Origin: a virus
Direction: 5' to 3' (one strand)
DNA length: 64,000 bases
Virus record (IMG/VR): IMGVR_UViG_3300020424_000652
In this document: piece after piece, positions 8,901 to 45,364 of the stretch
Numbering within the stretch: position 1 is the first letter of the stretch
How the letters are laid out: each line of letters begins with the position of its first letter
Notes under the pieces: model-generated
Database searches by the model: none
What the model was told of the DNA's origin: nothing
The model's input: the letters and a program-made list of their open reading frames with translations, nothing else
Program-made: the position numbers and the translations under genes

Positions 8901-11900
8901 ACGTTGCTTGTTCACCTGTGTTTTGTAAATTTTGTCCACCAATTGCTGTGTAACTTGCTGTTCCACCTGGTGCTGTACCTGTAGCAGTAATTCCTGTGAT
9001 TGCTCCTGAGGCATCAACAGAGGAAATAGTAATTGTAACATCATTGGCCGGACTTGCACCACCTAATGTTGTACCTTGAATTCTAATTGACTGATCAACA
9101 TAATATCCTGCACCTGGAGTATTAACTGTTACAGTATATGATCCTGCATTTAAAACAACATCAAACGTTCCTGTTGATCCAACTTGGTTAATTGCTTCTC
9201 CGTCAAATTGACTTAACTGTGTTACTGTTTTAGTATCTAAGGCCGTACCTGCAATAGTTACACCTGTAATTTCACCAGTGCTGGCATCAACTGCCGAAAT
9301 TGTAATTGTTGCGTTGTTAGTTACATCAACACCACCTAAGTTACTTCCTAAAATTACAAATTCTTCTCCAGCTAGATAACCTGTACCACCAACAACTACT
9401 GATGCAGAATAAGACGTATCTAATCTCGTAACGTTGAATGTTGCGTCTGCACCACCAACTGTGTTAGAAGTGTAAGCTGGATTGTTATAACTTTCAGTGG
9501 CATCTGGTGCCGTACCAGTTACACTAATTGTATTAATTCTTCCTGTGCCACTTACTGCATCTACTTTTACAATAGCATCATTGGCAGGACTTGCACCACC
9601 TATGTTACTTCCTAATATTTTTAATCTATCACCTGCGGCATATCCTGATGTTGCGTCTGCGGCCGTACCTGATGAACTAAATGATGTTATTGCACCAGTT
9701 CCTGCATTTATTCCTGTGACCGTTATTGTTAAATCATTTGCTGGTGATGTACCACCTAAGTTGTTACCTGCAATTATAATGGTGTTTCCATTTGCATAAT
9801 TTGTTCCTGGTTCATTACCTTGTGTAACTGTATAACTGTTATTATAATTTACTGTAACGTTGAATGTTGCCGCCGCTCCTACAAGATTTTGTCCAGAGGT
9901 AATATTAGTATATGATCTTGAGTTTACTGCTGTTCCAGTAATACTAATTGCTGTGATAACACCCGAACCATCAACTGAGTCAATTGTAACAGTTGCATCG
10001 TTGGCAGGACTTTGTCCACCTAAATTTGTTCCTGCAATCACTAAAGTTTCTGATGCACTATATCCTGAACCTGCATTAACAAGTGTTACACCATAAGTTG
10101 ATCCAGTAAAGTTTACGTTTACTGCGGCATCTGTACCAACACCACCGTAAGTATAACTTGGTTCTGTGAAACTGTTTGATGCGTCTGGTCCAGATCCTGC
10201 AGATGTAAATGATGTAATACCACCCGAACCATCTACACCAGTGATTGAAATTGTTAAATCGTTTGTTGCATCACCACCAAATTCTGTTCCGTTTATTCTA
10301 ATTGCATCACCGACAACGTAACCTGCATCAGTGGCTCCTGAATTTTCTGCAACGGTATAGTTATTATTTGCAAGAGTAATGTCCCAAGCCGCACCAGTTC
10401 CTGTACCACCTTGTGTTACACCAGTTCCATTGTTTGCATAGGTTGGTTGTGCTAAACTTACTGAATAAGTATTGTTTGTGTAGGTTAAATCAAATATTGC
10501 ACCTAAACCATTTCCGTTTAAGTTAGAACCTGCTACATTAGAATAACTTCCTGTACCATCAAAAGCTGATCCTGTTGCTGTAAAAGTAACTACTGATCCA
10601 CTTGAATCGATTGAATCAACTGTAATTCTACAATCATTAGTTCCTGTTTGTCCACCTAACAAGTTACCAAGCACAATAATTACATCGCCTACTAGGTAAT
10701 TGTCTCCACCTGTACCATTTAGCACAGCGGTATAATTTCCGCCTGCTCTATCAATATCAAAAGTTGCTCCAGTACCAGTTGGATTTACATTTGTTCCTGC
10801 AAGTCCTGTATAGTTAACATTGTTTCCAACAATAGGACTTGTTGTATTACCATCTAGGTTTACATTGTTTCCACTTACACTTGAAACATGAATTGCATTT
10901 CCGTCACCTCTGTCTATGGCCTGTCCTGCTAATATGCCTGTAACATCGCTAACTGCTATTTGGTTTACACCTGCGGCGTAATCTGCCGCAACTGATAATG
11001 TTGCAATTTCACCACCACTGCCTGTAACAACAGTAACCTGAGCACCTGAGGCAACTCCTGTTCCTGCATTTACACTTGCAACCAAGAATGTTAAGTCTGG
11101 TGCACCACCGCCTCCTATTGAAGCATCTGGTACAGTGATTGTGTCACCTACAGCGTTGTTTCTACCACCTAAAAAGTTACTTGCTATGCCGGCACCTGAG
11201 CCATCGATTGTAACAGTCATTGTGCCTACAATTAATTCTGCTGTAACACTAGATGATGTTGCATTTGTAACTGTATATGTTCCTGGTGTTCTTGACGCAC
11301 TTGCCGCCGAATAAGTATTAACCGTTGCAATTTGTCCTGAAACGTTTTGCATCGGAGCACCAATCTCTGGTGTGTTACCAATCCATGTAACTTTATCACT
11401 GCCATTCAAAGCACCTAATGGGTTTGTAAATACACCTGCTGTACCTTGCGAAAGAATAGTAAATGTAGGAACACCAATTGCCGCTCCTGTATAAAATCCA
11501 CCTTCTCTTAACTGTGTGTAGTAAGTTGAAAGCACTTGATTGTTTGCTGTACCAACTTTAGATTTTGCAAAATATGTAAATGTACTTGCAGTAGGTACAG
11601 TCGATACAATAAATGAACCTTCTGCTCTACTTGCCCCTTGAATACTATTTTCAAGTGCCTTGATTGTAATTGGAGTACCAGCAGTAATACCGTGTCCTCC
11701 AACTGTTGTTACTGTAATTAAACTTTGTCCTACTCCACCTGTACCAGTTGAAGCATCTGTTTTAACACTTGCTACAACTTTATCAGTACCTGGAACTTCG
11801 TATATACTTGGATAACCTCTTTGCATAGCAATGGCTTGCCACTTCGTAGGCTGTAATCCATATTCAAAGTCAGCGTCAAGCATGGATACTGAGTTTGAAA

Positions 11901-13314
11901 CTCTCATACGTTCAATAGCATCAGTACCAAAATCAAATGGTCTAATTCTCATTTCACCTTGATCAATGAAAATTTGTAAATCGTCAGTTGAATGATATAA
12001 AGGTATTCTTTCTACAGTTGGTAAACTGTCTAAACCATTAGCAATTACACTGGTAGTAATTTCAAAAAGTTGTGTTACTCTTGTTGTCACACCAGCTTCT
12101 GGTAAAGATAAAAGTGTGTTTTGTGCAACAGCACTTCCACCTGACTGTAAAGTTGTCCAAGTTGTGTTTGTTAATACATATCCGTTAATTAAATCCTTAA
12201 GCCAGTTTCTAATGGTCGTTTCAGGAGTTCTTGTTCCTGTTATCAACGGTGTTGTTTGTACCCAATATGTTTTTGCTTGATCATATGTGTAACCATTGCC
12301 GCCATATTTTATATCATTGACCAAAGCAGTAAGTTCTTGATTAATGTCTCTTTCCATCGCAACGGAATTATAACTGTAACCGTCAAACGTTGATCCTGCT
12401 GTTGCTGTTGAAACTGCATTGGCCACATAAGCCAAAGTTTCCTTCTTCAAGAAGTTCATGTTTGCATTTAGTACTGCTATTGCATTTGGAGAATACTCAA
12501 CGTTGTCTGTATCTTTCTTAAGATAAACTGTTGTTACTGTTCCTGTTTTTTCTAAGAATTTAGGAAAGTCTTCTTCAATACCTTTTGTTAATTTGTCAGT
12601 GTCATCTGTTTGGTATTGTACAGTTGCACCTAATTCTGGATCACTAAAATTAAACAACACTTCGTTGTTTGTAGTGTCTGTCATTAACAATAAATCATTT
12701 GTTGGAATACGTGTTTGCATTTTCACACTTGAAATTTTTGATCTGTCAAGTGCAGGAACATTATCAAGACCGTTTTGAATAACGTCTGTGATAATTGCCA
12801 TCAATGCAGTAATTCTAGTATCTGCTCCTGATTCATATGCAATACCTGAATTTGTGTATTGTGTTGTTACCACAGGACTTTGTTTTGTTGTGTAAGCTGT
12901 TTGTGGTAAAATGTAATTGTTAATTAAACTTACAATAAAGTTTTTGGTTAAAATTTCTGGTTGTCTATCACCATCAAGCTGTGGTGTTGAGTTGATCCAA
13001 TACTTACTTGCTAGATATCTTGCCTGTGCATTTCCACCATAACGCAAATCAAATATTACACCACCGTTTCCATCAGTGCCTTCTAAATTGTATCCTGTAT
13101 CTCTTTCACACTTGGGAGAATTGTATGTATAGTTGTACCAAGGGCTACTTGAATTACCTGCATTAAGAGTAACCTGTTCAGCAATCCAACCAACAGCTTC
13201 GTCTTTGATAAATTCAATGTTATTTTTTATTAGCTCATAAGCATTAGGATACCTATTACCTGAAAGTGGAATTCCCGGTTGAAATATATACGTATCTATC
13301 TTTTGTTTAGCCAT
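5938..13314 (-). CDS. Giant modular virion structural / tail-fibre-like protein (2458 aa)
   Basis: Gly/Thr/Ser-rich beta composition, tandem ~70-aa repeats (LGGxSPANDxTITV), repeated helical module (YNSxKCERD...DxxYGGN...YW); located in the structural region. Confidence 0.7.
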   Translation of the reverse strand: MAKQKIDTYIFQPGIPLSGNRYPNAYELIKNNIEFIKDEAVGWIAEQVTLNAGNSSSPWYNYTYNSPKCERDTGYNLEGTDGNGGVIFDLRYGGNAQARYLASKYWINSTPQLDGDRQPEILTKNFIVSLINNYILPQTAYTTKQSPVVTTQYTNSGIAYESGADTRITALMAIITDVIQNGLDNVPALDRSKISSVKMQTRIPTNDLLLMTDTTNNEVLFNFSDPELGATVQYQTDDTDKLTKGIEEDFPKFLEKTGTVTTVYLKKDTDNVEYSPNAIAVLNANMNFLKKETLAYVANAVSTATAGSTFDGYSYNSVAMERDINQELTALVNDIKYGGNGYTYDQAKTYWVQTTPLITGTRTPETTIRNWLKDLINGYVLTNTTWTTLQSGGSAVAQNTLLSLPEAGVTTRVTQLFEITTSVIANGLDSLPTVERIPLYHSTDDLQIFIDQGEMRIRPFDFGTDAIERMRVSNSVSMLDADFEYGLQPTKWQAIAMQRGYPSIYEVPGTDKVVASVKTDASTGTGGVGQSLITVTTVGGHGITAGTPITIKALENSIQGASRAEGSFIVSTVPTASTFTYFAKSKVGTANNQVLSTYYTQLREGGFYTGAAIGVPTFTILSQGTAGVFTNPLGALNGSDKVTWIGNTPEIGAPMQNVSGQIATVNTYSAASASRTPGTYTVTNATSSSVTAELIVGTMTVTIDGSGAGIASNFLGGRNNAVGDTITVPDASIGGGGAPDLTFLVASVNAGTGVASGAQVTVVTGSGGEIATLSVAADYAAGVNQIAVSDVTGILAGQAIDRGDGNAIHVSSVSGNNVNLDGNTTSPIVGNNVNYTGLAGTNVNPTGTGATFDIDRAGGNYTAVLNGTGGDNYLVGDVIIVLGNLLGGQTGTNDCRITVDSIDSSGSVVTFTATGSAFDGTGSYSNVAGSNLNGNGLGAIFDLTYTNNTYSVSLAQPTYANNGTGVTQGGTGTGAAWDITLANNNYTVAENSGATDAGYVVGDAIRINGTEFGGDATNDLTISITGVDGSGGITSFTSAGSGPDASNSFTEPSYTYGGVGTDAAVNVNFTGSTYGVTLVNAGSGYSASETLVIAGTNLGGQSPANDATVTIDSVDGSGVITAISITGTAVNSRSYTNITSGQNLVGAAATFNVTVNYNNSYTVTQGNEPGTNYANGNTIIIAGNNLGGTSPANDLTITVTGINAGTGAITSFSSSGTAADATSGYAAGDRLKILGSNIGGASPANDAIVKVDAVSGTGRINTISVTGTAPDATESYNNPAYTSNTVGGADATFNVTRLDTSYSASVVVGGTGYLAGEEFVILGSNLGGVDVTNNATITISAVDASTGEITGVTIAGTALDTKTVTQLSQFDGEAINQVGSTGTFDVVLNAGSYTVTVNTPGAGYYVDQSIRIQGTTLGGASPANDVTITISSVDASGAITGITATGTAPGGTASYTAIGGQNLQNTGEQATFNVTRNGGAYSTATVALDGINYQVGNKIKLVGSSVGGTDVTNDVIINVTEVATDGGIISVTSSGTAVAGTVVKTYSTVTMSENLVAAVPQNYTLQFAALATVEVSFTTAHGLIPGDSFLVTVSTDDGSNNHTLLEGPFFAQQVPTTTTLRYQCRAAGAISDVNDINAILYPRPDSFFVHRPYDGGVQLGTGGPQHGAQAIRQSKKYIRYQSGKGIMYTTGALFAPSYDLLTVTADAVTSGSFINVTTDDVDHGLQVGGQIRLIGIETPGYNGDYTVSAIVSEREFKVIAQTDLGATTPILSPKAQVSLLYWHGATVRSGAFDDQNGIFMEYDGANYNAVQRTATLQLSGTISLGVDSNAVTGIGTRFRDQVKAGDRVVIKGMTHVVSQVTSQTSMNVTPDFRGVTPASGAKICLVADKKSKQADFNGDVLDGTGSSGYILDISKMQMIGIQYSWYGAGFIDWMLRGDDGNFIFYHRMRNSNVNTEAFMRTGNMPVRYEVTNEGPNDRLGAAMDATQTTIPLEDASFFPPGGGTVIIDNEMIQYTGITGDTLTGCTRSAPLTNFAAGATRTYTAGVAAEHTARTGVILISNTITPIISHWGSAFQTDGGFDSDRGYIFSYTSTGNVISSTRNTVFMLRLAPSVSNAIVGDLGERELLNRAQLLLEGIEITSDGVDGSGNPIVGGIVVEGILNPQNYPLDPGDVGWSPLTGAAAGGQPSFAQVAPGGSVVWSTGETQVLRNATTTAEMTNDLVASYNRNNTNYHFFTNASWNLVSSEVSTGNTVTATSNAQSGSSDFPDGTTITDIYEYYNPKLMRFSNRNTATISNGETVTVSINPTGALDKTNYLYFTKASWEATGAIAGTEVSDSKFPGGTYVSGVQGPSTYGGVEYYRVTFTQSSLQNITAGTTVSFLFGQPPYALPGETVFSFIATPGEQSSLMLGTLKELTNTTLGGRGTFPNGPDVLAINVYKASGASTNANIIIRWGEAQA
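8700..10775 (-). repeat. Eight ~70-aa protein repeat units (seven intact, one split) in the 2458-aa protein
   Basis: Recurrent GAxFxV...Y...GxGYxxGDxIxIxGxxLGGxxxxNDxxITVxxVDxxGxI...GTA. Boundaries are approximate. Confidence 0.8.
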
Positions 13315-25685: not shown

Positions 25686-28600
25686 TTAACTCAATAAAAA
25701 TTGTTGCATCGCTACTGGTGATCCACTTATACCACCAGTAAAGTTCATTGTTGCAGTTATATTTATCGGAACATTCGTTGTTGTAGTAATCGTATTGCCC
25801 GAAATATGAACTACCCCTGCTGTAACAGTATTTACGTTCAATTCTGAAGCACCACCACCAATTTGGGACGTAATATACGTCTTAATTGCTTTTTGTGTTG
25901 GCACAATACTATCGGAATTTGCCGCAAAAGTACCGTCTGTACTAAACTCGTTAACTGTTGCTCCAGTTCCTCCTAGTGCAACACTACCAAGTTGTAGTTC
26001 TTGTAACCCTGTGATGCTAAATGCATCTGCGTTCAACGTAGCAACACCTGTTGCCTGTTCAACGTTAAACAATCCACCAACTCTGAAGTTACCATCTTGG
26101 TCAGTAGATGTAAAGAACACTCTTCCACCGCCGCCTGTTACTGTTTCATCATTTGGATCAGCTGGTATTGTTGGAGTTCCTGGGTAATTTGTAGTTGTAA
26201 ATCCACCAGTACCAACGTCAAGGAAGTCATGACCAGTTAATCGAACCTGTGAATATCTTATTCTCATCTCCACAGATGTTCCATGTGCTGGTGCATCATT
26301 GATCGCCATGTCTGGTGAAAGTTGTAATAATGCTGAGTATGGATTAGATCCTGTTAATCCTGTAACACTAACAAGTTTGAAAACTGTGTTTGGTAAGTGA
26401 CTGAATACAACGTTTGCTCCCGCTTGTGGAATGCTTTCCATTGCTTCAACTTTTACATATTTTCCTGACTGTTTAGCATCTCTGAATCCTGCGCCATATT
26501 TTACTTTACCGCCGGATACATAAGCAGTTCCATTTTTATAAACTGCTGGGAATAATAAATCATTATCCAAATATAATTGTAATGTATTTCCATCAATTAC
26601 TTTAACAAAATAACTATTTGCGTTTAATTGTGTTGTTCCAACTATCTCTGAAATAGTAATTTTTGTTCTTTCTAAAATATTATGCGTTGCAACTGTTAAG
26701 TTAACACAACCAGCACCACCATTAGTTGGCATTGAAGCTAATCCGTTTGCAATAGTTTCTGTAACTATGTCAATTAGTTCTCCAACTTTAGTTTGTCCTG
26801 CCGCTTCACCATTGTTTGAATTAGTTGTTTGTGTAGTGACTGATTGTAATGAACTGTAAGATGTATTATCTAAAATGTAATCTAATAAAATAGTTTTCAT
26901 TTGTACGAAACTTGCAATTCTTTGTTGTTGTGCATTTGGTAATTGTGTTTGTGTTCCAATCCAATATGCTCTTGCCGCCGCAGTTGTGTCTTTAGTTCCA
27001 CCAAACTTGACATCATTTGCAAGTGCATCAATTAATGTACCTGTTTGTGTTTCCCATAAGTCTGCATCATAAATGAATCCATCCCATAATGTTCCACCTA
27101 CTGTTGAAATTTGGTTGTTGATCCATGCAATAACTTCATCTTTAACATATTCTTTGTTAGCTGTTAACAATGTATTTGCATAAGGATTTTCACTGAATGA
27201 AACTCCTGTGATGTTTTTCTCTGAACCTGTGTCATCTATTGTTGCAGTAAGAGTTGTGTAACCTGTACCTCTTGAAGTAAATGATGGTTGATTCAATACA
27301 CCGTCTCCAATGAATACTTCTAGAGGAGCATCTGCTGTATTGTTAGGATCAGTAAATGTAACTGTTGGAGGTGTTGTGTAAGAAGCACCTGGGTGTATAA
27401 TTCTTACTTCACTAATTTTACCATCTGCAACTTTGGCTCTTGCCAATGCTTGAGCAGTTGCAGTTGATCCATCATTGCCAGGAGCACTAATTACTACTCT
27501 TGGTTCAACACTATAAACTGTTGTGTTGTCTAAAGCGGCCTCAATTGCTCTACCACTTACGATTTGATCCCAACCGTCACTTCCATCTGAATATTTTTTA
27601 ATTGTAGCAACTTTTGTACCTGCGTTGTATGTGTTTACGTAACCGTACTGTCCAGCACCTTTACCACCTGTTAAAAATACTGCCATACCAACATACGCGG
27701 CACTTAAAGCTGTGTCAGTGTTGGATAATGTAATTTGTGTACTTGTACCAGCCTGTGGTGTGTTTGTCGCAAATTTGTAATCTGCACCACCAAATGTATT
27801 TGCGTTACCTGTTAGTCTAATTTCCATTACACCACCAGTACTAGTTACTGGAGTTAATCCAGTTACGCCGTAACCGTCACCACTTAAACTAATAGTTGTA
27901 GTTGATACATTGTAATCTCTTCCCGCATTTGCATATTCTAATGCAATAATATTATTGTTATCTGTTATAGTTGCTGTTACAACTGCCTCAAATGATCTGT
28001 TGTCAACGTATGCTTTGATAGGAGTTTCAGTTAAGTCAACACCTTCTGCAACTGTACCAAAGTCACCATAAGATGAGTTACCATTTGTTGCTCTAATTTT
28101 TCCGCCGTTCTCTGCAAGGTATCCCATGTGTCCATAATATGAGAACACAGAAACAAGTTCTGCTCTACCTAAGTTTGTAACCCAAGCACCAATACCTTGA
28201 TCTAAAATTTGTGTAAAGTCGTTTGCAACGATAGAATCGTTACCACCTGCGTGTATGTCACCGTCTACCTTCATTCCAATACATTTTGTTCCAAAAGTTG
28301 TAACATTTTGTACGTAAGGTGAACGTGTTGAAATCCATGCTCTTGTATCTGCTGGTCCCCAACTTGGATCTAATGAAACAAAAGCACCAGCTGTTGGACG
28401 TTTAGTTCCGTATGCGTTTTCTGATCCTAATGTTCCTGATAAACCTCTAACAGTACAGTTTCTTAAACCAGTTCCATTCTGCATATAGAACATATCTGAA
28501 GTTGAAGATCCCATAATTGAATTTACAAGATATCTTGCTGATGTCAAGGACATATAGTTTCCAAAGTTTTCTAAATCCCACATGATACCTTCAAGGTAAC

Positions 28601-31600
28601 GTTTTAAATCATCTCTACATTTTGCTCCATGTTTAGATCCATATAGAGCTTCTTTTTCCATGTATAATTTAGTATTGTTTGCTTTGATATATTCTTGTCC
28701 TTCGTAAATTAAAAAGTCTAAGTTTGCAAGTATTCTTCCTCTTGCATATACATCACCAGCTCTGCTGTTTGTAGTTGTTTGTCCTGTTTTTTCTGGATAT
28801 GCAGTACCAACACCATTAACACCATAATCAATGTAAGCCTTAATTTCTGTAATTAAGTTTGTAGTGTTTGTTACTGATGTTGCGTCACCTGGCTCTCTAT
28901 TTGTGTCTTGTGTTTGAGTATTACCTGTTGCAATTTCTTGGACATCCATTGTAAAGTTTGCGGCACCACCGCCACCTAATGCACTATCTTGAATAGTAAT
29001 TGTATCGTTTACAGCATGACCTGTTCCACCAGTTACAACTACAACACCTGTTACAGCACCGCCGGCTCCAACAGTAATGTTAAATGTTCCTACTGTTCCT
29101 GATCCTGCTGATGAACCTGTTACTGCATTGTAAGTTCCTGGTGTTCTACTTGCATCTGCGGCACTAAAGCTATCCATTTTTACGTGTGCACCTGCTGGTG
29201 TTTTTGTAATTGAATTGTTTTGTATCAAGTCACTCATTACAGCTGATATTCTTGTAAGAGCCGCCATTGATAAAGTTGCATCTGAAGTCAAAGTAATTCC
29301 TGTTGGATATACTCCAATGTCAGTTGAACGTAATTCATCTCCTACTAGAGCTGTGTCTGCCGGTATAACTATTGGACAAACTTCTGTGTATGTTCCTGTT
29401 TTTACAAAAACAGTTGTGTTTGGTTTTACTTTTGCATCTAATCCTGTTAAATCTCCTGCATCAATAACTTCATTAATCAATGTTATTAATGTTGAAACCT
29501 GTGTGCCTATCATTTCTGGAACAACACCTGCTGGATTATATTGTGTTACAGTATTTGATTCACTGTTTAAACTTTGATAGTTTGTTGTTACAACTAAATT
29601 TTGTACAATTCTTTGCAACATTGTGTTTACATAACTGTTTACTGCACTTATTTGTGATGCTTGAGAGGCTGGTGCAAAAGAACCTGTTGAGAAATAAGAC
29701 TGAGCTCTTTCTCTTGAGCGTTCATTACCACCATGGCTTATGTCATAAGCAATAGCATCAACAAGTAAACCTACTAATTCTTGATATTTTGCCGCATCAT
29801 ATGTAAAGCCGTTCCATATTCCACTACCACCTGCGTTTGCTACTTGATAGTCAACATATGATTTACCTGCTTCACGCATGATAAACATTTTGTTACGCAT
29901 AATAAGATCTTTTGTAAGTGGATTTCTTGGTCCAAATCTAATTTCTCTCATTGCGTGTCTAATTGTTTTCCAAGGCTTGTCAATAGTTACACCATATCCT
30001 GGTGCATCTTCATCTGCTCCGCCTTTACCTACATAATAAACTTGATCAACTTGACCAAAGTATGCCCATTCCGGAGCATTACCTTCGTCATTAACTTTTA
30101 AAACCTGTCCTGCAATTCCAATTGGTAATCTTGTTGGACCTGATCCACCATAGTAAACTAAATCACCAGCAGTTGTTAAGTTGCCTGATTCAGCACCACC
30201 TGATAATAGTTTCCATTCACTACCATCAACATCTTGATCTGGTCTATTTTGTGCACCTGTTTGATCAGCTGTGTGTGCCGTTACACAAATATAAGAGTTG
30301 ACGTTGTTAATTCCTCTGACTGCATCACCTACATCATAGTAAGTTCCGTTTGCCCAACTGTCTCTCCAATTGATACCTTCATTTAATTTTTCCCAGTAAC
30401 TTGCATTAGGTGGTCTGTTGCCTGTTGAGTCTGCAATATTAAGATAAGTGTAACCACCAACTCTAACAACATCACCTGTTTTGTATGCTGTGTTGAAAGC
30501 CAAGTCAACATTGTTACCTAATGTTTGTGCTGAACTTAATACTAAATTATTTTGGTCTGTGACTGTTGCTACTGTTACTGTTCCAGAAATACCTGTACCA
30601 GTTACTACCATGCCTTGTACAATAGTTCCAACATTTGTATCAACTACTAATGCTGTTGTACTTGATATTGCACCATTTACTTTTGCTGTTGCACTTGCAT
30701 AGTCACCTTTTAAACTAAATCCTGTTGTAAATAAATCCCATGTTGCCGCGTTGTTGTAAGGTATAACGTTGCTGTGATTTGTTTTTGAAACATAACCATA
30801 TCCACCATATGTAACAAAGTCACCTGGTTGATAGTTAGTTGCTGAATTCCATGAATCTTCAAATTCTAAACCTGGAACAAATTGTGACCAATTGGTTGTT
30901 TGTGTAATTGTTGCAACTTGGAATGTTAAAGATGCACCACCGCCACCACCTAGGTCGCCATCTGTTACTGTGATAACATCTGTTGCTGAATGTCCTTCAC
31001 CACCTTTTACTATTGTAATAGATGCCGCTCCAGTTCCATCAATAGTAATATTAAATCTTTGTCCTGTACCTGAACCACCTGATGAACCATTTACATCTTT
31101 GTATGTGCCTGCTGTTCTACTTGCGTCAGCGGCCGATATAGATCCAACTGTTGCAATTACTCCTGATACTGCATTGTCACTTGCAAGGTTAGTTCCACCT
31201 GATGTGTGTTCTCTTGTAGCAATCCATAAACCGCCACCATACTTGACAACATCATTTACTTTGTATCTTGTGTTTGTTTGGTGAACTGATTTGTATTCAA
31301 TACCTTTGTGTGCGTAATCCCATTTGCTTTGATCTGCCTCAAGTCCTAATGTTGTGTTTGCGGATGATAAGTGAGCTTCGTTACAGATGTAAAGTTGTCC
31401 ACCATACTTAACTGTATCGTTGACTCTGTATTTTGTTGCCGGTGCCCAATCTTGTTTCCAATCAATACCTTTTGCAAAAACGTCCCACTTGCTTTGATCT
31501 GCTTCTAATCCATCTGCGTCTGCGGCAAAAGTTGCACTTGAAGTATGTGCAGTATTACAAAGATAAACTGTTCCACCATATTTTACTAAATCATTAACTT

Positions 31601-31997
31601 TGTAAATTGTTGCAACTGTCCAAATATTTTTCCAATCAAATCCTTCTGCAAATAAATCCCATTTAGCTTGATCAGTTTCTAATTTACCTGGAGTTGCACC
31701 ATCAACTTCAGCTGTGTGAGCCGTGTTGGCAATGTAAATGTAACCACCATACTTAACAATATCATTTTGTTTGTAGTATGTTCCAGCTACCCAATCACCT
31801 AAAAATGCTGAACCGTCTGTGAATAGATTCCATTTAGTTGCTTCGTCTGTTGTGAATAATGTTGAAGCTGTGTGTCCAACCGAACAGTAGTAGGTTCTAC
31901 CACCATGTCTTACAATATCGTCTTTATAGTAGACGGTGCCGGAAGCCCACGCTCCCTTCCAAACAAATCTAATTCTACCTAGTTTAAACTCAGCCAT
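25686..31997 (-). CDS. Giant virion protein with N-terminal CBM5/12-like repeats and a beta-helix-like core (2103 aa)
   Basis: Repeated WxxxTxYxxNDxVxYGGxxYxCxxxHTS; VYYV...VFVKTGTYTE...VGDELRST; C-terminal RYSQVRLTGHDFLDVGTG...STDQDGNFRVG. Confidence 0.75.
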   Translation of the reverse strand: MAEFKLGRIRFVWKGAWASGTVYYKDDIVRHGGRTYYCSVGHTASTLFTTDEATKWNLFTDGSAFLGDWVAGTYYKQNDIVKYGGYIYIANTAHTAEVDGATPGKLETDQAKWDLFAEGFDWKNIWTVATIYKVNDLVKYGGTVYLCNTAHTSSATFAADADGLEADQSKWDVFAKGIDWKQDWAPATKYRVNDTVKYGGQLYICNEAHLSSANTTLGLEADQSKWDYAHKGIEYKSVHQTNTRYKVNDVVKYGGGLWIATREHTSGGTNLASDNAVSGVIATVGSISAADASRTAGTYKDVNGSSGGSGTGQRFNITIDGTGAASITIVKGGEGHSATDVITVTDGDLGGGGGASLTFQVATITQTTNWSQFVPGLEFEDSWNSATNYQPGDFVTYGGYGYVSKTNHSNVIPYNNAATWDLFTTGFSLKGDYASATAKVNGAISSTTALVVDTNVGTIVQGMVVTGTGISGTVTVATVTDQNNLVLSSAQTLGNNVDLAFNTAYKTGDVVRVGGYTYLNIADSTGNRPPNASYWEKLNEGINWRDSWANGTYYDVGDAVRGINNVNSYICVTAHTADQTGAQNRPDQDVDGSEWKLLSGGAESGNLTTAGDLVYYGGSGPTRLPIGIAGQVLKVNDEGNAPEWAYFGQVDQVYYVGKGGADEDAPGYGVTIDKPWKTIRHAMREIRFGPRNPLTKDLIMRNKMFIMREAGKSYVDYQVANAGGSGIWNGFTYDAAKYQELVGLLVDAIAYDISHGGNERSRERAQSYFSTGSFAPASQASQISAVNSYVNTMLQRIVQNLVVTTNYQSLNSESNTVTQYNPAGVVPEMIGTQVSTLITLINEVIDAGDLTGLDAKVKPNTTVFVKTGTYTEVCPIVIPADTALVGDELRSTDIGVYPTGITLTSDATLSMAALTRISAVMSDLIQNNSITKTPAGAHVKMDSFSAADASRTPGTYNAVTGSSAGSGTVGTFNITVGAGGAVTGVVVVTGGTGHAVNDTITIQDSALGGGGAANFTMDVQEIATGNTQTQDTNREPGDATSVTNTTNLITEIKAYIDYGVNGVGTAYPEKTGQTTTNSRAGDVYARGRILANLDFLIYEGQEYIKANNTKLYMEKEALYGSKHGAKCRDDLKRYLEGIMWDLENFGNYMSLTSARYLVNSIMGSSTSDMFYMQNGTGLRNCTVRGLSGTLGSENAYGTKRPTAGAFVSLDPSWGPADTRAWISTRSPYVQNVTTFGTKCIGMKVDGDIHAGGNDSIVANDFTQILDQGIGAWVTNLGRAELVSVFSYYGHMGYLAENGGKIRATNGNSSYGDFGTVAEGVDLTETPIKAYVDNRSFEAVVTATITDNNNIIALEYANAGRDYNVSTTTISLSGDGYGVTGLTPVTSTGGVMEIRLTGNANTFGGADYKFATNTPQAGTSTQITLSNTDTALSAAYVGMAVFLTGGKGAGQYGYVNTYNAGTKVATIKKYSDGSDGWDQIVSGRAIEAALDNTTVYSVEPRVVISAPGNDGSTATAQALARAKVADGKISEVRIIHPGASYTTPPTVTFTDPNNTADAPLEVFIGDGVLNQPSFTSRGTGYTTLTATIDDTGSEKNITGVSFSENPYANTLLTANKEYVKDEVIAWINNQISTVGGTLWDGFIYDADLWETQTGTLIDALANDVKFGGTKDTTAAARAYWIGTQTQLPNAQQQRIASFVQMKTILLDYILDNTSYSSLQSVTTQTTNSNNGEAAGQTKVGELIDIVTETIANGLASMPTNGGAGCVNLTVATHNILERTKITISEIVGTTQLNANSYFVKVIDGNTLQLYLDNDLLFPAVYKNGTAYVSGGKVKYGAGFRDAKQSGKYVKVEAMESIPQAGANVVFSHLPNTVFKLVSVTGLTGSNPYSALLQLSPDMAINDAPAHGTSVEMRIRYSQVRLTGHDFLDVGTGGFTTTNYPGTPTIPADPNDETVTGGGGRVFFTSTDQDGNFRVGGLFNVEQATGVATLNADAFSITGLQELQLGSVALGGTGATVNEFSTDGTFAANSDSIVPTQKAIKTYITSQIGGGASELNVNTVTAGVVHISGNTITTTTNVPINITATMNFTGGISGSPVAMQQFLLS

Positions 31998-32035: not shown

Positions 32036-35000
32036 TTATCCATTACTATTATATCCGTTACCTGCATCGTTATAATATAGTCCATCACCCTCATAATCAT
32101 CCTGAGAATCTATCAATGTAAGAGCTTCCATACCCAAGTTATTGTATGCTTGAGCAACCATAGTTCCCCCTGGAATCTTAGAACTGCTTAATGGTACTGG
32201 AATATTGATTGGTAAATCACCAGTATTTGACAAGTGATTTATTTGATCAAACTTACAAGTACCAGCCGTAAGTGCGTTAGCCGCCACGTTTGCTCCACCA
32301 CCTGATATTCTTGATTGGATATAAGCCGCAATAGCTCTTTGTGTAGGAACAATAGCATTACTATTAGCAACGAAAGTTTGTTCTTTTGAAAATTCTCTAA
32401 TTACAGCATTTGTTCCACCAAGTACAAAAGCACCCAATCTCAATTCATTCAATCCAGATAGGTCAAACTGTGATGCACTTATAGAAACAATACCTGTGCT
32501 TTGTTCAACTTTAAATAATTCACCAACTCTAAAGTTTCCATCTTGGTCAGTTGATGCATAGAAAACTCTTCCACCATTGTATTCATTGGCTTCCCACATC
32601 TGTTCTGGTGGATTAACTGATCCAAACCCTTCAAGATAAAGTTTAGGATAATCAGTGTTGTTAAAGTTTCCAGTACCTATGTCTAGGAAATCATGGAACG
32701 TTAATCTTACCTGACTGTATTTTTGTCTAATAGTAACTGAAGTTCCGTGTTCTGGTGATTCTTGTATACCCATTGTAGGTGCTATGGAAATTTTTGCTCT
32801 AATGTTTGGAGCAGATCCTGAAATAACAGTTGCACTTCCTACTTTGTAAATAACATCTGTGATTCCTGCAAATCTCATGTTATCACCCGGACTTGGTAAT
32901 AATGTTAAATCGTCAACAACTACTTCTCCTCCGGTTTGATATTTGTCAATAAATCCATTACCTGTGATTGTAACTGCATTAAATCTTACATAACCAGATC
33001 CTCTTGATTTGAATGCTGGTTGTGCCAATACATTATTTTTAATTCTTACAGAAATATTTGCATCTTGTGTTTTTTGTGTATCGATAACATCAACAGTTGG
33101 CGGAGTAGCTGAGTCATAACCAGATCCTGGATCAGTCATTACAAATCTTGTAATTCTTCCAGTATCAATTGTTGCTCTCATCTGTGCTTGTCTACCAGTT
33201 TTAATAGTGTTAATAGTTGCAGTTGATCCTGTGTCTATCACAACAAACTGTGGACCTTTTGTTCCTGTACCTACGTGTACCTTTGGTGTAAATGCTCCAA
33301 CTGGTGGAGTAATTTGTGGCTTGACTACCCAAGTATCACCTCCGTCACTTTGTCTTACATTACCAGCTGAGTCAACTGCCATAAACACTCCATCTGTGTA
33401 ATCCAGTCCCCATTCATTTTCATTAATAATGTTGGAAGCCTCTACAGGTCTCCAAGTTGCGTTGTTGGCTCCTTCTGCATAATCAGTAAAACTTAAATAG
33501 AAAGTTGATGGTAAACCAAATGTTGCAGTGGTTGTTGAAGTGCCATCACTAATCATTGTTGAAGGACTTGCTGGGTTGAAAGGAAAAGTAGCAGTACCGT
33601 TTGGCTTCACTGCCGCAATAAATCTTCCGTTACCAAAAGTAAAATCAGTTACGTTAAATGTTGTTGGACATACTCTTGTTGTTGATTGCCAGTTTTGTCC
33701 ATTGTCTGTGCTTTCAAATGCAGTACCATCTGCCTTAACAGCAATCCATTTTCCATTACCGTATCTAATATGTTTTAAACCTGTTCCCATACCTGAAGTT
33801 ACATAAGTCCAAGTTGTTCCGTCTGTTGTAGTTACAGCTAATTCATCTGAATCATCTGCTACTGCAATTACTGTATGTGACGTATCACTAAAAGGACCTT
33901 CTGCTATGTCCACCCAGTTACGTTGTGTGATTGGATATGGATTTGATCCCCAGGCTGTCGCCGCTGTTGATAAGTTTGCTCTATTTCCATTTCCTAATGC
34001 AATCCAATATTTTAATTTTCCTTTACACTTAACAATACATTGTGGTCTTACAAAACCTGCGTCAACTGTTGCCGCCGAAAATGCCGATTGGCTGTTGTCA
34101 CTGTACAATGCTAAATCTGTACCACTGCCAGGGAAACAAAATACTGTTTCATTGTGTACACCAGCAACTGGTTTCCAAACGTTTGTGTTGTTTGTGTTAT
34201 GAGCCGTTGATGCATAGTTTGGTTCAGCTACTTTTATTCTTGGTTCAATCCTGTAAGTTGTTGATCCATCTAATGATGTTTCAATTGCTTGTCCAGGAAG
34301 TATGTGATCAAATCCTCTTTTTCCATCTGATGCTTTTATTACATTAATTAATTTTGTGCTTGGGAAGTATTCATCAATAATACCAAATTGTCCTACACCT
34401 TTACCTTCTTCAATAAAAATTTGCATTGATTCAGAAATTGTAGCAACGTTAAATGTTAATGGTGCTCCTCCATAGTTTCCTAGTGATGCATCTGCAATAG
34501 TAATTGTGTCTCCAACTCTATGACTGTCTCCACCATGTGTTACCGTAACTGTACAATTACCAGTGTTGTCTACAACAACTGTAAATCTCATATTAGTTAC
34601 GCCAGCAAATTGATTGTTTGACGTTCCTGTCACATTTGTATATGTGATAGGATGGTCTAATGCGTTTTGAACTCTGTTTGCATCTGCACCGGAAATATTA
34701 TTAATTGTAAGTATTGCTCTTCCAACATATTTTTCTGCGGTCCCAGTATCTGAGTTTGCAATTTTAATGCTAAAGTTTGTTCCTTCTTGAGCAGAGTTTC
34801 TAACGGCAGTCGTGTGTCCTCTACCACCTGGTAAACTTGAATCACCTGGATCCAACAATCTTATTTCACTTATTCCTGCATTTCTTACATCAATGAAATC
34901 GTTATCAACGTCAACTCCAGAACCTGATCCAGTAATTGTGTAAGTGGCATCAGCATAGTCTTGACCTGCGTGTGTGTAACCTAATGCAAGGATTTGATTA

Positions 35001-37357
35001 CCATCATTGTAAACTACTGGTGCTTCTGCATCATAATATCTGTTGTTCAATGTTGCTGTGATTGGTGTTTCTAAAGCATATTCACCTTCAGCAAATGATC
35101 CATATTTTCCATATGAGTTGTTTCCGTTAGTTGCTCTAATTTTTCCGCCACCTGTACAATAGTAACCAATATGACAATAATATGTAAACACAGATACAAG
35201 CTCTGCTTTACCGTCATCGTTACACCATACACCTATTCCATCACTTAGAACCTGTGTAAAGTCGTTTGCAACAATAGATCTATTTCCACCATTGTGTAAT
35301 GTACCATCAATCTTCATTCCTATACAACCAGATCCTAATGTTGTTACGTTTTGTACATAAGTTGATTTGTTTGTTACCCATACACTAGTATCTGTAGGTC
35401 CTGCTCCTGGATCAAGTGCCACATAAGCACCTGTGTTAGGAATCTGTGCTCCGTAGTTGTCTGCTGAACCTAGTTGACCTACCATACCTTGTAATGTCAT
35501 GTTTCTTATACCACAACCATTTCTAACTCTAAACATATCGTTGGTTTCATAACCTGCACGTGGTTGAACAGTTGTGCTTCTTAATTCATCTCCAACAATA
35601 GCAACGCCACTTGGAACATTGATTGGAGTAATCTCACTGTATAGTCCTGTGCTAACAAAAATTGTTGCAGGAGCTCTGTTGGCCTCATCTGCTAATATAT
35701 ATTGTGTTGCGTATTTGATACTTGCAAAAGGAGCCGATATTGTTAAACCAAATCCTGAATCATCTTTTCCATTCATTGCAACATAATAAACCTTTTGAAC
35801 TTCACCTAATCTTTCCCAAGTACCTGTTCCATTAACAACTTTTAATGCTTGTCCTGGAAGACCTATTCCTAATCTTGTATGATTACTTCCGTCATGTGTT
35901 CTTAAATCACCTCTGTAAGCCAACACGTTGTTTGGATTACCCATAACCATTTTGATCCAATAACTGTTTGTTGTATCTAGGTCTGGAGTAACAAGTGTTG
36001 AATCATCACCTTGGTGTGCTTGAACACATTTGTATGACGTTCCTTTGTAAACAATAATGTCTCCTAACACATAAGACTGTGTTGAGAACCATTCACCTCT
36101 GTAATATATCCCTGTCAATAATAATTGCCAGTACATATTAATTGATCCTTCTGTGGATCTAGTTGATCCTGGATCGTAATAACCTCTTGACTCTGGTGTT
36201 AATGCATCTGGTTGTTCGTTAGTGCTATCTCTAACAGCTATGTAAACAAAACCACCATTTCTAACTATCTCACCAGTTTTGTATGACGTAGCGGAATCCC
36301 ACTCACCTTTCATCTGGTAACCAGTCAACATTAATTCCCAATCATATTGACCTTGTAAACTTTCTCCTTCGTAGAACACACCAGTTACACTTGGTGGACT
36401 ACCTGTGTTATTCTTCATTGCAACATAAGTGTATCCACCGTATACTACAATGTCACCTGGTTGATAAGTTGCCGCATTATTCCATACAGCTTCATATCCT
36501 AAACCAGGACACCATATATCAAATTTTGCTTCATCGAAACTTGCTAATGATTGGTGTGCAGTCTTACAACGCCATAACGTTGGACCGTACATAACGATAT
36601 CACCTACTTTGTATTTGATACCAGATGAATCTAAGTTTCCTTGCCATTCACCTTTGTAACAAATACCGTCAAGTATGACATCCCATTTTGCTTGATCTTG
36701 TTCTAAACCTAAAATTGTTGTTGCCGCTGATGTGTGTCCAGTGTTACATCTGTAAAGTCTTGCACCATATCTTACAAAATCATTTACTTTATATTTTGTA
36801 GTAATTGACCAATCAATCTTCCAGTCATCTGTTTTAACAACTAGATCCCACTTGGACTGATCATTTTCTAATCCAGCAACCGTTGTTGCAGAAGTGTGTT
36901 CTGTTAAACATTGGTAAACATAACCACCGTACTTGACAACATCATCTATTCTATATCTTGTTGCAGGTGCCCATTCAACTCTCCAGTTCGGACTCTTTGC
37001 ATATGGTTGTAATTTATCTGTGTCGTTGCTAATACCTAAAGCTGTGGTACTTGCTGAAACGTGTTCCTGTAAAACTTTATAAATTACACCATTGTATTTT
37101 ATTAAATCATTTGGTACATATCTTGTTTCAACTACCCAGTCACCTCTCCATTGGAAACCTTCTGTATTTTTTAACCACTTGCCTGGTGTTGCATTTAGAT
37201 CAGTTGCAAAGGAAGTTTGATCGGAAACGTGTCCAACCATACAGATATAAACATTACCACCATGTCTAACAATATCATCTTTGATATAGGTGGCACCTTT
37301 CAGCCAAACATTTTTCCAAGTGTATCTAATTCTTGCTATGTTAAATTGCTGTGCCAT
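32036..37357 (-). CDS. Giant virion protein, paralogue of 25686-31997, with BNR/propeller-like insert (1773 aa)
   Basis: Same CBM-like repeats, VGDELRST, SIVANDFTQ, ELVSVF, STDQDGNFRVG. Additional TTDGTTW, STDNGQNW and SDGGDTW Asp-box-like motifs. Confidence 0.75.
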   Translation of the reverse strand: MAQQFNIARIRYTWKNVWLKGATYIKDDIVRHGGNVYICMVGHVSDQTSFATDLNATPGKWLKNTEGFQWRGDWVVETRYVPNDLIKYNGVIYKVLQEHVSASTTALGISNDTDKLQPYAKSPNWRVEWAPATRYRIDDVVKYGGYVYQCLTEHTSATTVAGLENDQSKWDLVVKTDDWKIDWSITTKYKVNDFVRYGARLYRCNTGHTSAATTILGLEQDQAKWDVILDGICYKGEWQGNLDSSGIKYKVGDIVMYGPTLWRCKTAHQSLASFDEAKFDIWCPGLGYEAVWNNAATYQPGDIVVYGGYTYVAMKNNTGSPPSVTGVFYEGESLQGQYDWELMLTGYQMKGEWDSATSYKTGEIVRNGGFVYIAVRDSTNEQPDALTPESRGYYDPGSTRSTEGSINMYWQLLLTGIYYRGEWFSTQSYVLGDIIVYKGTSYKCVQAHQGDDSTLVTPDLDTTNSYWIKMVMGNPNNVLAYRGDLRTHDGSNHTRLGIGLPGQALKVVNGTGTWERLGEVQKVYYVAMNGKDDSGFGLTISAPFASIKYATQYILADEANRAPATIFVSTGLYSEITPINVPSGVAIVGDELRSTTVQPRAGYETNDMFRVRNGCGIRNMTLQGMVGQLGSADNYGAQIPNTGAYVALDPGAGPTDTSVWVTNKSTYVQNVTTLGSGCIGMKIDGTLHNGGNRSIVANDFTQVLSDGIGVWCNDDGKAELVSVFTYYCHIGYYCTGGGKIRATNGNNSYGKYGSFAEGEYALETPITATLNNRYYDAEAPVVYNDGNQILALGYTHAGQDYADATYTITGSGSGVDVDNDFIDVRNAGISEIRLLDPGDSSLPGGRGHTTAVRNSAQEGTNFSIKIANSDTGTAEKYVGRAILTINNISGADANRVQNALDHPITYTNVTGTSNNQFAGVTNMRFTVVVDNTGNCTVTVTHGGDSHRVGDTITIADASLGNYGGAPLTFNVATISESMQIFIEEGKGVGQFGIIDEYFPSTKLINVIKASDGKRGFDHILPGQAIETSLDGSTTYRIEPRIKVAEPNYASTAHNTNNTNVWKPVAGVHNETVFCFPGSGTDLALYSDNSQSAFSAATVDAGFVRPQCIVKCKGKLKYWIALGNGNRANLSTAATAWGSNPYPITQRNWVDIAEGPFSDTSHTVIAVADDSDELAVTTTDGTTWTYVTSGMGTGLKHIRYGNGKWIAVKADGTAFESTDNGQNWQSTTRVCPTTFNVTDFTFGNGRFIAAVKPNGTATFPFNPASPSTMISDGTSTTTATFGLPSTFYLSFTDYAEGANNATWRPVEASNIINENEWGLDYTDGVFMAVDSAGNVRQSDGGDTWVVKPQITPPVGAFTPKVHVGTGTKGPQFVVIDTGSTATINTIKTGRQAQMRATIDTGRITRFVMTDPGSGYDSATPPTVDVIDTQKTQDANISVRIKNNVLAQPAFKSRGSGYVRFNAVTITGNGFIDKYQTGGEVVVDDLTLLPSPGDNMRFAGITDVIYKVGSATVISGSAPNIRAKISIAPTMGIQESPEHGTSVTIRQKYSQVRLTFHDFLDIGTGNFNNTDYPKLYLEGFGSVNPPEQMWEANEYNGGRVFYASTDQDGNFRVGELFKVEQSTGIVSISASQFDLSGLNELRLGAFVLGGTNAVIREFSKEQTFVANSNAIVPTQRAIAAYIQSRISGGGANVAANALTAGTCKFDQINHLSNTGDLPINIPVPLSSSKIPGGTMVAQAYNNLGMEALTLIDSQDDYEGDGLYYNDAGNGYNSNG

Positions 37358-43282: not shown

Positions 43283-43729
43283 TTACGCATTTGCGAAATC
43301 GTCGTCGTCAGTACCTGCTTTTGTATCATCGTCACCAGCTTCTTCAATTTGAGCGGCTCCGTCTGATCCAGATGCTGTAAATGTCCAAGCTAATGATGTT
43401 CCTGATAGTGCATTTGAACCTGTACCATCTGGTGCAATCACAGTAGCTTTTCTACCAGCGATTTTTGAGATCTGATAAGTTTCATTATCATCACCTTTTA
43501 CAGTAATACACATTTCTGTACCTGTAAGTGCTGATGCTAATTTACCTGTAGTTAAGAAACGATCGTACTCTGTTGAGCCACCGATTTCCTTAACACGGAA
43601 CTTTTTTGATCCTAACTGCTTAACGATGTAACCTTCAGTAACAGCTGAGCCATCATGAAAGTCTACTTTGATCTCGTTTCCACCCGCTGTAGGTGTTCCG
43701 AAAAATCTTTTATTAATTGGTCTTCCCAT
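43283..43729 (-). CDS. Hypothetical late protein downstream of the capsid gene
   Basis: 148-aa ORF with strong SD (AAGGAG) and its own late promoter at 43815-43821. Confidence 0.7.
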   Translation of the reverse strand: MGRPINKRFFGTPTAGGNEIKVDFHDGSAVTEGYIVKQLGSKKFRVKEIGGSTEYDRFLTTGKLASALTGTEMCITVKGDDNETYQISKIAGRKATVIAPDGTGSNALSGTSLAWTFTASGSDGAAQIEEAGDDDTKAGTDDDDFANA

Positions 43730-43812
43730 TTGTTTCTCCTTTGACGTTCTAGGTCTACGGGGTTATGTCCCCATAAGTCCGCCGTAAATGCGGCTCGCTT
43801 TTTATAGACACA
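43730..43812 (-). promoter_or_regulatory. Structured 5' leader of the 43283-43729 gene
   Basis: Minus-strand stems GCCG-cattta-CGGC, TTATGGGG-acataa-CCCCGTAG and GTCTA/TAGAC, immediately before the SD. Confidence 0.45.
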
Positions 43813-43850
43813 AGTATTTATCAAAGTTATGGGAATGGGTAAAGAAAGGT

Positions 43851-44064
43851 ATAGCAAAATAGGTAGGACTTGGTTACACCTACAAGCACGTACCGGAATA
43901 CCATTCTAATACGTACAACCTAACCCCGCTAGTGACTGCGATGTGAACCTGCGGATTTCTCCTACAAGCCCTGGGTACCACCCCTGGTTAGTCAAGTTCG
44001 ACCCTTCTGGTAAAGGCCTCTTCCTTGCACTATAATTAAGAGTTAATTACTCTCCTAATGCTAT
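43851..44064 (-). ncRNA. Candidate ~214-nt multi-stem non-coding RNA of unknown class
   Basis: sigma70 promoter at 44071-44099. The predicted +1 (ATAGCA, ~44064) pairs with the 3' TGCTAT (43851-43856). Several internal stems including a GAAA tetraloop; no credible ORF. Confidence 0.6.
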
Positions 44065-44070
44065 GTTTAT

Positions 44071-44099
44071 AATATAACACCGTTTTTTGAAAAAATCAA
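44071..44099 (-). promoter_or_regulatory. sigma70-type (early) promoter
   Basis: TTGATT-17 bp-TATATT with extended -10 TGn. Confidence 0.65.
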
Positions 44100-44143
44100 C
44101 CATAAAATGCAAAAAGGTTGTCCAAAATAGAAAGAATATCCAC

Positions 44144-44173
44144 AAAAAAAGATAGGCCCCGAAGGGCCTATCT
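44144..44173 (-). terminator. Rho-independent terminator of the capsid operon
   Basis: AGATAGGCCC-TTCG-GGGCCTATC followed by a T run on the minus strand. Confidence 0.92.
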
Positions 44174-44197
44174 AATATTTCGTCTTAATCCTAAGGA

Positions 44198-45364
44198 TTA
44201 AGAGAATGTTACGTTACTGATAGTTACAGTACCTAAGTAGTCTGCCGCATTACCAAGAGATGATGCTGTGTTGTTTAACTCAACATAACCATATCTTGTC
44301 ATGAAACTTACTACTGGCTCAAATGTAGACGGATCTAACACTACACCACTAGACATTAGTGGAATGTATGGGCAGTAGAATGCCGCCGCATCAGATTCGC
44401 TTGATCCTTTGTAACCAACTAGTACTGCTGTTGCATCAGTGGCATATGAATCAACATATACCTTCATCGCACCGTTCAAAGTACCAACAAATTTAGTATT
44501 TGTTGGAGCCTCAAAAGCACCTTCAGTTGTTCTTGCGAACGCTGAAGTTGTTGCAGACTGAAGTACTGTTAATGTGTGTGGTGAAACCACAGCCCAGTTA
44601 CCAGCGCCACGTCTTGTTCTTTGTGCGATTGTGTTAGCAACACGGTTGATCATCACAGCCAAAGCCGCGTGTTCATCACCAACGAATGTAGCAGTTCCTG
44701 ATACACCGTTTTGATCGTATGCTTGTTGGTTTGTAGAACCTGCTAAAGCACGTAATGATGCAAGTACTTCTTGATCAATCTCAGCAGTAATTTCTTGAGC
44801 TAATGCCGCCATAATTTCTGCTTCGATGTCAATACCTTGCTGTGCTTGAGCATCTTGAGCCGCTTCAAAAGTCCATCTAGCTGATAGCTTTCTGGTTTTT
44901 GCTTCGACTGTTTGTTTTAAGATCTGGATCGATAATCTCTTTCCAGCGTCCCCTTCTAGTCCAGCCGTAGCCGCACCTTTTGGAGTTGCATCAGTGGCAT
45001 TACCTGAGTATGCCGCCGCGATCTTGAATGGTGATAGAGCTTCTTCACCAACTTCGTTACCATCAGATGAATCTGCATAACGAACTCTTAATGTGTGGAT
45101 TTGACCCACTGGTCCTGTCATAGGTTGTACACCAACTATTTCGTTAGCTATAACCGTAGGCATAACCCTTCTGATTACTGGTAGGATAACTCTGTTAAGA
45201 GTTGCTACATTACCGGCGCTTGTAGAACCAGCTGTTGCAGTCTCATTCAACCACTTGCGTGTGTTTTCTAGAGTACTTGCCATTACAGCCTTTTTGTTAC
45301 CGTTTAGGCCTTCTAAAAGAGCAGTTTTGGTATCCTGCCAGCGACTTTCTAGTAGTTCTGACAT
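44198..45364 (-). CDS. gp23: Major capsid protein (T4 gp23 family)
   Basis: VIRRVMP...IVGVQPMTGPVGQIHTLR, VEAKTRKLSARWT.EAAQD, EITAEIDQE, TRRGAGN, FYCPYIPL, FMTRYG. Confidence 0.95.
   Translation of the reverse strand: MSELLESRWQDTKTALLEGLNGNKKAVMASTLENTRKWLNETATAGSTSAGNVATLNRVILPVIRRVMPTVIANEIVGVQPMTGPVGQIHTLRVRYADSSDGNEVGEEALSPFKIAAAYSGNATDATPKGAATAGLEGDAGKRLSIQILKQTVEAKTRKLSARWTFEAAQDAQAQQGIDIEAEIMAALAQEITAEIDQEVLASLRALAGSTNQQAYDQNGVSGTATFVGDEHAALAVMINRVANTIAQRTRRGAGNWAVVSPHTLTVLQSATTSAFARTTEGAFEAPTNTKFVGTLNGAMKVYVDSYATDATAVLVGYKGSSESDAAAFYCPYIPLMSSGVVLDPSTFEPVVSFMTRYGYVELNNTASSLGNAADYLGTVTISNVTFS

Follow-up and report, generated by a model that had tools for sequence, protein, structure and literature searches.

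The window analysed here, the whole 64,000-nt stretch of IMG/VR record IMGVR_UViG_3300020424_000652, carries on its minus strand, behind a gp23-type major capsid gene, a structured RNA of 214 nt which, judged from its sequence, is a divergent member of the manA family (RF01745). We read it, at a probability of about 0.6, as a free-standing and probably self-assembling manA-type RNA. A free-standing product is favoured over a gene switch by the dedicated promoter, the terminator or tRNA gene that stands behind the RNA, the fixed slot, the metatranscriptomes and the loop covariation, all taken together. In cyanophages, manA was put forward as a candidate riboswitch acting in cis (Weinberg et al. 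2010, PMC2864571), and Rfam likewise classes RF01745 as cis-regulatory. This classification speaks for the rival reading of a cis-regulatory leader, in which a sigma70 transcript would run through the RNA into the following 148-aa gene and beyond, and the fold would respond to a ligand or factor and thereby adjust read-through or translation; we regard this as possible but doubtful, and the evidence on both sides is given below where it arises.

44064-43851, minus strand: manA-type RNA of 214 nt, from the predicted +1 A44064 to U43851, with an Rfam manA match, covariation and metatranscriptome contigs

Assignment of the RNA to the manA family

When the whole window was scanned against Rfam at gathering thresholds, no match was returned. 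A permissive scan placed manA RF01745 on 44058-43853, covering all 192 model positions (1-192), with a score of 44.8 bits (E 3.1e-10 for the 701 nt searched and 2.8e-8 for the 64-kb window), which is about 10 bits below the RF01745 gathering score of 55.2, itself an operational cut-off. The window holds one such copy. By blastn the sole similar phage record was that of Pelagibacter phage Mosig EXVC030M (MT647606.1, 108164-108371), where an unannotated intergenic stretch is 71% identical and scores 64.0 bits to manA, over the gathering score. The Mosig RNA has the junction motif and the promoter in common with that of the window, and differs from it in passing the Rfam threshold and on its downstream side, where a rubrerythrin gene begins after 22 nt and no terminator intervenes. 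Scanning IMG/VR with the motif AGTGCAAGGAAGAG...GAACTTGAC yielded at least 120 contigs that carry an RNA of this subgroup; 16 relatives from IMG/VR scored 40-58 bits to manA, two of them over the threshold (L003 at 57.9 and L018 at 57.5). The full-length match, together with relatives that reach 58-64 bits, indicates a divergent subgroup lying astride the curated cut-off and no new class.

The likeness to manA extends to the order and number of helices (a 5' hairpin, the closing stem, a hairpin, a three-hairpin domain and two 3' hairpins), to the GUG junction and the GGUGGU-type loop, to the marine T4-like phage setting and to a sigma70 promoter that abuts the first helix. Of the conserved elements in the manA consensus, the window RNA retains AGUG, GGUGGUAC, the ACC-type loop and the UCC..CCU tail, and has other sequences in place of the CUGAAUAAACUU block and of the GACG loop. 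The canonical cyanophage copies score 169-197 bits against the 44.8 bits of the window RNA, which has the junction CAAGGAAGAG in place of CUGAAUAAACUU, a P1 loop of 9 nt with a palindrome in place of GACG, and an extra terminal helix, P0; it also stands behind a giant-phage capsid gene, whereas the canonical copies stand before metabolic genes. A string search for the subgroup's junction motif gave no match in the portion of the Weinberg et al. 2010 supplement that was searched, in which the alignment carries gap characters, so that this result is uninformative.

The original prediction had left the RNA outside any known class and had offered a decoy, an antitoxin mimic or a ribozyme as its function. 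The manA model now matches over its full length and relatives exceed the threshold, which amounts to the strong Rfam hit that was named there as removing the novelty, though the match of the window RNA itself is sub-threshold. A wholly new class could still point to the failure of every Rfam family to reach its gathering score in the window, and to the junction sequence AGUGCAAGGAAGAG and the P0 clamp, both of which depart from the Rfam manA consensus. Against it stand the helix-by-helix match over the full length of the model (E 3e-10), the continuous series of relatives up to 58-64 bits, and a locus in which neither a nearby toxin gene nor a cleavage-site signature was seen; nothing was found in favour of any of the three proposed functions, and we consider a new class scarcely tenable. 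ARAGORN found no tRNA and no tmRNA in the window, in agreement with what had been predicted. A coding reading was also rejected: no conserved peptide frame was found, the only open reading frame inside the RNA being one of 33 aa that is intact in merely 10 of 50 relatives.

Covariation and secondary structure

The pairing of the Rfam model, extended by the outer helix of the original prediction, was applied to the window RNA and scored pair by pair in 50 relatives, aligned by MAFFT with no fitting to the structure. By this count 92.1% of the cells pair, as against 74.2 ± 0.5% after shuffling (none of 500 shuffles was as high) and 36-48% when the partners were slid. Compensatory changes, on both sides of the pair, occur at 47 of the 64 pairs and all 11 helices have support. 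The minimum free energy is -67.5 kcal/mol (z = -2.45), and the corresponding fold regains most of the covarying helices, of which the main ones are as follows.

44059..44064, minus strand: 5' strand AUAGCA of P0, pairing with UGCUAU at 43856-43851; a terminal clamp outside the Rfam model, with compensatory pairs
44036..44058, minus strand: P1 hairpin UUAGGAG/CUCUUAA with the 9-nt loop AGUAAUUAA; 6 of 7 pairs with compensatory changes
43920..43991, minus strand: multi-helix domain closed by CUAACC/GGUUAG, with three hairpins whose loops are GUGGUA (43981-43976), GAAA (43959-43956) and UCAC (43935-43932)
43859..43916, minus strand: 3' hairpins P4 (GUACGU/ACGUGC, loop UGGUA) and P5 (GUAGG/CCUAC, loop UGUAACCAAGU), with covariation

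The CUAU that follows P5 closes with AUAG at 44033-44030. P0 was tested separately by duplex energy, since MAFFT misaligns its outer pairs: native combinations of 5' and 3' segments have a mean of -6.72 kcal/mol compared with -4.79 ± 0.19 kcal/mol for permuted ones, and none of 200 permutations was as low. Canonical manA RNAs have no room for such a helix because their P1 starts at +1, and a P0-like pairing that we considered in P-SSM2 was ruled out, because transcription is predicted to start only after its 5' strand. The loop of P1 contains the palindrome UAAUUA at 44049-44044, and a 6-nt palindrome (in the versions TAATTA, TTATAA and TAGCTA) is found in the P1 loop of 64 of 78 distinct relatives.

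Most of the helices first drawn from the single sequence are upheld by covariation among the 50 relatives, namely ATAGCA/TGCTAT, AGAGT/ACTCT (which is part of P1), GGCCTTT/AAGGGTC, GGG/CCC, GGA-GAAA-TCC on a longer stem, GTACGT/ACGTGC and GTAGG/CCTAC. The pairing CTAACC/GGTTAG is real too, but it had been labelled as an alternative pairing and is in fact a core helix. On the other hand TAGG/CCTA, TGACT/AGTCA and GGTTGTAC/GTGTAACC have to be given up, with 54.9% of their cells paired, which is the level of shuffles. A mutual-information scan for additional long-range pairs returned mainly the known helices, and the loop-loop signals of the UGGUA and ACCA type are near-invariant, which leaves covariation nothing to score.

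A conserved promoter behind the capsid gene

The minus strand is the coding strand for every gene around the RNA locus, and the features on the upstream side of the RNA are the following.

44198..45364, minus strand: gp23-type major capsid gene, upstream of the RNA (Pfam Gp23 1e-100; PHROG major head protein 2e-104)
44173-44150, minus strand: intrinsic terminator of the capsid gene, with a 10-bp stem of which 6 pairs are G-C, a UUCG loop and a TTTTTTT (T7) tail
44117-44129, minus strand: conserved box TATTTTGGACAAC, some 20 nt ahead of the RNA promoter's -35, occurring as TATTTTGGTAAA or GGACAA at the equivalent position in many relatives
44099-44071, minus strand: sigma70-type promoter, with -35 TTGATT at 44099-44094, a 17-nt spacer and the extended -10 TGnTATATT at 44079-44071 (TATATT at 44076-44071)

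TTGATT-17-TATATT is the sole sigma70-like site on the minus strand at the locus, and the predicted +1, A44064, lies seven bases past the -10 and is the opening base of ATAGCA. As a match by itself this promoter is not significant (2 sites found against 4.9 expected from shuffles). What marks it out is its constancy: in 72 of 80 distinct upstream contexts of relatives there is a TTGACA-like hexamer (at least 4 of 6 bases matching), a spacer of 16-18 nt and TATAWT, at a fixed distance from the RNA, and a TG ahead of the -10 is common. The promoter is the best-conserved flank of the RNA, and its fixed distance in the relatives places the predicted +1 on the first base of P0. Of the 101 canonical manA contexts, 91 have an equivalent promoter, and here +1 coincides with the base that opens P1. 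Together with the covariation, these counts bear out the core of the original prediction: beyond the terminator of the capsid gene lies a structured RNA, about 214 nt in length, which has a host-type promoter to itself. The early expression that was also predicted is suggested by the type of promoter only, and early timing is thus something that we infer. The upstream box TATTTTGGACAAC could be a phage-specific promoter or binding site.

At many canonical manA loci (L135, L156 and L193 among them) the -35 TTGACA is found in a hairpin loop; the hairpin, GAGGGT-TGAC-ACCCTC with a T7 run behind it, resembles a terminator, so that a single compact element ends the upstream gene and starts the RNA.

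The order capsid gene, RNA, 148-aa gene and 323-aa gene is constant in about 55 related viral contigs, in which the gp23-type capsid protein is 73-98% identical to that of the window. A prohead protease gene and the gp23-type capsid gene accompany the RNA, which is the marine T4-like phage setting that the manA family has as well, and the head module is nearest to those of jumbo myophages such as PA5oct; the source of the window is an uncultured marine giant T4-like phage. The window also holds three very long open reading frames on the minus strand, at 5938-13314, 25686-31997 and 32036-37357 (2458, 2103 and 1773 aa), which would be consistent with the structural region of a giant phage. A glutamine riboswitch (RF01739, 43-60 bits) is present in close relatives, in the interval that separates the capsid gene from the manA-type RNA and some 300 nt ahead of the latter (L031 742-791, L073 230-279, L003 2812-2861, L071 1828-1875 and L039 1996-2042); it is absent from the window.

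The fixed slot behind the capsid gene in these contigs could also be taken to mean that the RNA serves the late capsid operon as a processed element for stability or insulation and has no function of its own. We consider this very unlikely, as the RNA has its own conserved promoter with a strong terminator upstream of it, canonical members of the family occur in quite different contexts, and the conservation of its loops and junctions goes far beyond what a simple stabilising element would need.

Occurrence in seawater metatranscriptomes

The RNA stretch is contained in 18 seawater metatranscriptome runs from about 15 studies. These data are contigs, of which ends, strand and level are not definable, and depths were not used for ranking expression. 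In one run (X9) a 196-nt contig lies on 43871-44064 with zero mismatches and ends at the predicted +1, with zero depth at 44083-44196 and at 43798-43854; in another (X5) a contig on 43843-44042 runs into adapter sequence, again with zero depth at 44083-44196. Two studies thus have pieces that are confined to the RNA, one of them ending at the predicted +1, and we take this as a weak hint of a discrete transcript; that these contigs end near the ends of the RNA also speaks against a leader. For the leader, two further runs (X1 and X2) have long contigs across the capsid gene, the RNA and the downstream gene and so bridge the RNA and the 148-aa gene, but these may represent either DNA or read-through RNA. 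With the conserved promoter, the terminators that most relatives have behind the RNA and the contigs confined to it, the independent transcription unit of the original prediction is plausible.

The downstream side of the RNA

Past the 3' strand of P0 the window shows the following features.

43823..43850, minus strand: G-free, C-rich spacer at the place where most relatives carry a hairpin terminator, found in the window and its 7 closest distinct relatives
43815..43822, minus strand: GATAAATA, T4-late-promoter-like; 24 of 32 syntenic contexts have [G/T]ATAAATA past the RNA or past its terminator
43727..43794, minus strand: freshwater-2-like leader RF02980 (score 42.7 bits, gathering score 49.9, E 4e-5), covering the SD and AUG of the 148-aa gene
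43283..43729, minus strand: 148-aa gene (MGRPINKRFFG...), of no known family; its family is downstream of the RNA in 27 loci including the window

Several features of this side speak for the leader reading. The 148-aa gene begins 121 nt past the RNA with no hairpin terminator between, and an intrinsic terminator after the RNA is absent from the window and its 7 closest distinct relatives. In these the 30 nt past the RNA contain 8-10 C and only 1 G, which lies inside the following GATAAATA; a Rho-dependent stop in this C-rich tract would be a guess. Many manA RNAs lie 15-80 nt before an open reading frame without a terminator (rubrerythrin in Mosig, purL in P-SSM2), and in Mosig and P-SSM2 the frame starts 16-22 nt past the RNA. 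Moreover, a terminator right behind an aptamer, as in other relatives, is a common riboswitch platform.

An intrinsic terminator follows the RNA in 23 of 32 distinct syntenic contexts and in 46 of 87 distinct downstream contexts overall, beginning 11-17 nt past the core and just behind the 3' strand of P0. The stems of these terminators lie clear of the RNA and their sequences vary freely, so that no antiterminator is apparent; a riboswitch platform in which the 3' strand of the RNA overlaps the relatives' terminator stems or is complementary to them was not found, and a new TTGAC -35 often stands directly after the terminator. All this argues against a leader, as do the expression signals of the gene that it would control. 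GATAAATA resembles the T4-type late promoter, TATAAATA, and is probably the downstream gene's own promoter; homologues of the freshwater-2-like leader score 66-73 bits in relatives. With a late-type promoter motif and a conserved leader of its own, the 148-aa gene has its own expression signals. The pair of GATAAATA and the freshwater-2-like leader recurs behind the manA terminator in many contigs; a literature search for 'freshwater-2' returned only unrelated results.

The genes behind the RNA are, moreover, unrelated to one another, which speaks against a leader: they are gp32-like (31 loci, a call that is our reading of the N-terminus together with the Mosig and Syn9 annotations), of the 148-aa family (27), cold-shock protein (Csp), rubrerythrin, cytidylyltransferase-like and others, and at some loci even tRNAs. 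A tRNA gene follows the manA RNA after 7-13 nt in L146 (2878-2950) and L129 (344-417), and in L139 a conserved hairpin and then a tRNA (3764-3834) follow it; the manA copies at these three loci are canonical, at 169-197 bits. A tRNA directly behind canonical manA points to transcription units that contain RNA only. A conserved long hairpin, AGACCUAAGAUGCAACUC...GAGUGGGGCAGAUGGUCU, with a U-run stands right behind many canonical manA RNAs (in L139, for example, at about 3720-3760), and it matches no Rfam family.

We therefore prefer the free-standing RNA, for which the following course of events may be proposed. The host sigma70 RNA polymerase would start at the conserved extended -10 promoter, exactly at the first base of P0, and P0 would pair the 5' end of the RNA with its 3' end. 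The resulting RNA would be a discrete, compact molecule of about 214 nt, as opposed to a leader for the gene that follows. Synthesis would stop, in most relatives, at the intrinsic terminator directly behind P0, with the G-free, C-rich tract taking its place in the clade of the window, where we infer the end of the transcript; read-through from the RNA promoter into the 148-aa gene is possible. The 148-aa gene would be expressed from its own late-type promoter and its own leader. Once made, the RNA would multimerise by homology with canonical manA, to serve as a scaffold, in sequestration or in another role.

Loop contacts and probable self-assembly

ROOL and GOLLD are phage-borne, free-standing structured RNAs of roughly 500-800 nt which often lie near tRNA genes and homo-oligomerise. 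Going by description, the window RNA shares with them its free-standing, phage-borne nature, but they are far longer and unrelated to it in sequence.

A closer precedent is manA itself, which in vitro forms octamers, decamers and a 60-mer T=1 cage of pentamers, held by the kissing loops L5-L7', L8-L9' and L3-L8' and by a GNRA loop-receptor contact (Ren et al., bioRxiv 10.64898/2026.07.01.735769). This assembly is known in vitro only, at high RNA and Mg and for other members of the family, in which the L5-L7' pairing is seen by cryo-EM as intermolecular (10.64898/2026.07.01.735769). Defined homo-oligomers would be unusual for an aptamer, which counts against the leader as well.

We equated L5, L6 and L7 of that study with the three hairpin loops of the central domain by helix order alone. 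So equated, L6 of the window RNA is GAAA, which gives the middle one of the three hairpins a GNRA loop as in the cryo-EM assemblies, and L5 (GUGGUA) and L7 (UCAC) are complementary. In the relatives L5 and L7 covary (UGC/GCA, UGU/ACA, UAU/AUA and GGUA/UACC), with a covariation score of 0.28 compared with 0.14 after shuffling and compensatory changes at all three pairs, a signal in which contacts within and between molecules are indistinguishable. In all, the loops of the window RNA comprise one GAAA, two UGGUA, two ACCA and the palindromic L1; the complementary UGGUA and ACCA loops are a further likeness to the cryo-EM assemblies, while the palindrome of L1 would suit a homotypic contact. The window RNA lies outside the set that was studied by cryo-EM, and the palindromic L1 and the P0 clamp are not described there.

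By homology to these relatives, the window RNA most likely acts as a self-assembling multimer, and we would expect such assembly to take place in cells also. A more specific proposal is that in infected cells the RNA, made early from its host-type promoter next to the capsid gene, assembles into an RNA-only multimer or cage, in which the subgroup-specific L1 palindrome would add a two-fold contact and the P0 clamp would fix the ends; we offer this as a speculation that is rather unlikely to hold in full.

Significance for the manA family

Taken singly, the RNA of the window is a sub-threshold member of a catalogued family. manA has been an orphan riboswitch candidate since 2010, and the preprint reports cages in vitro with its natural role not given. 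The arrangement of the locus and its relatives in their genomes is relevant to this role, in that the slot for the RNA behind the capsid gene is kept across a clade of abundant marine giant phages, and the natural variants found here, with a palindromic L1 loop and a P0 clamp, are candidates for assembly testing. Were the cage reading true, the phage would be building from this RNA a compartment or scaffold that plays a part in infection.
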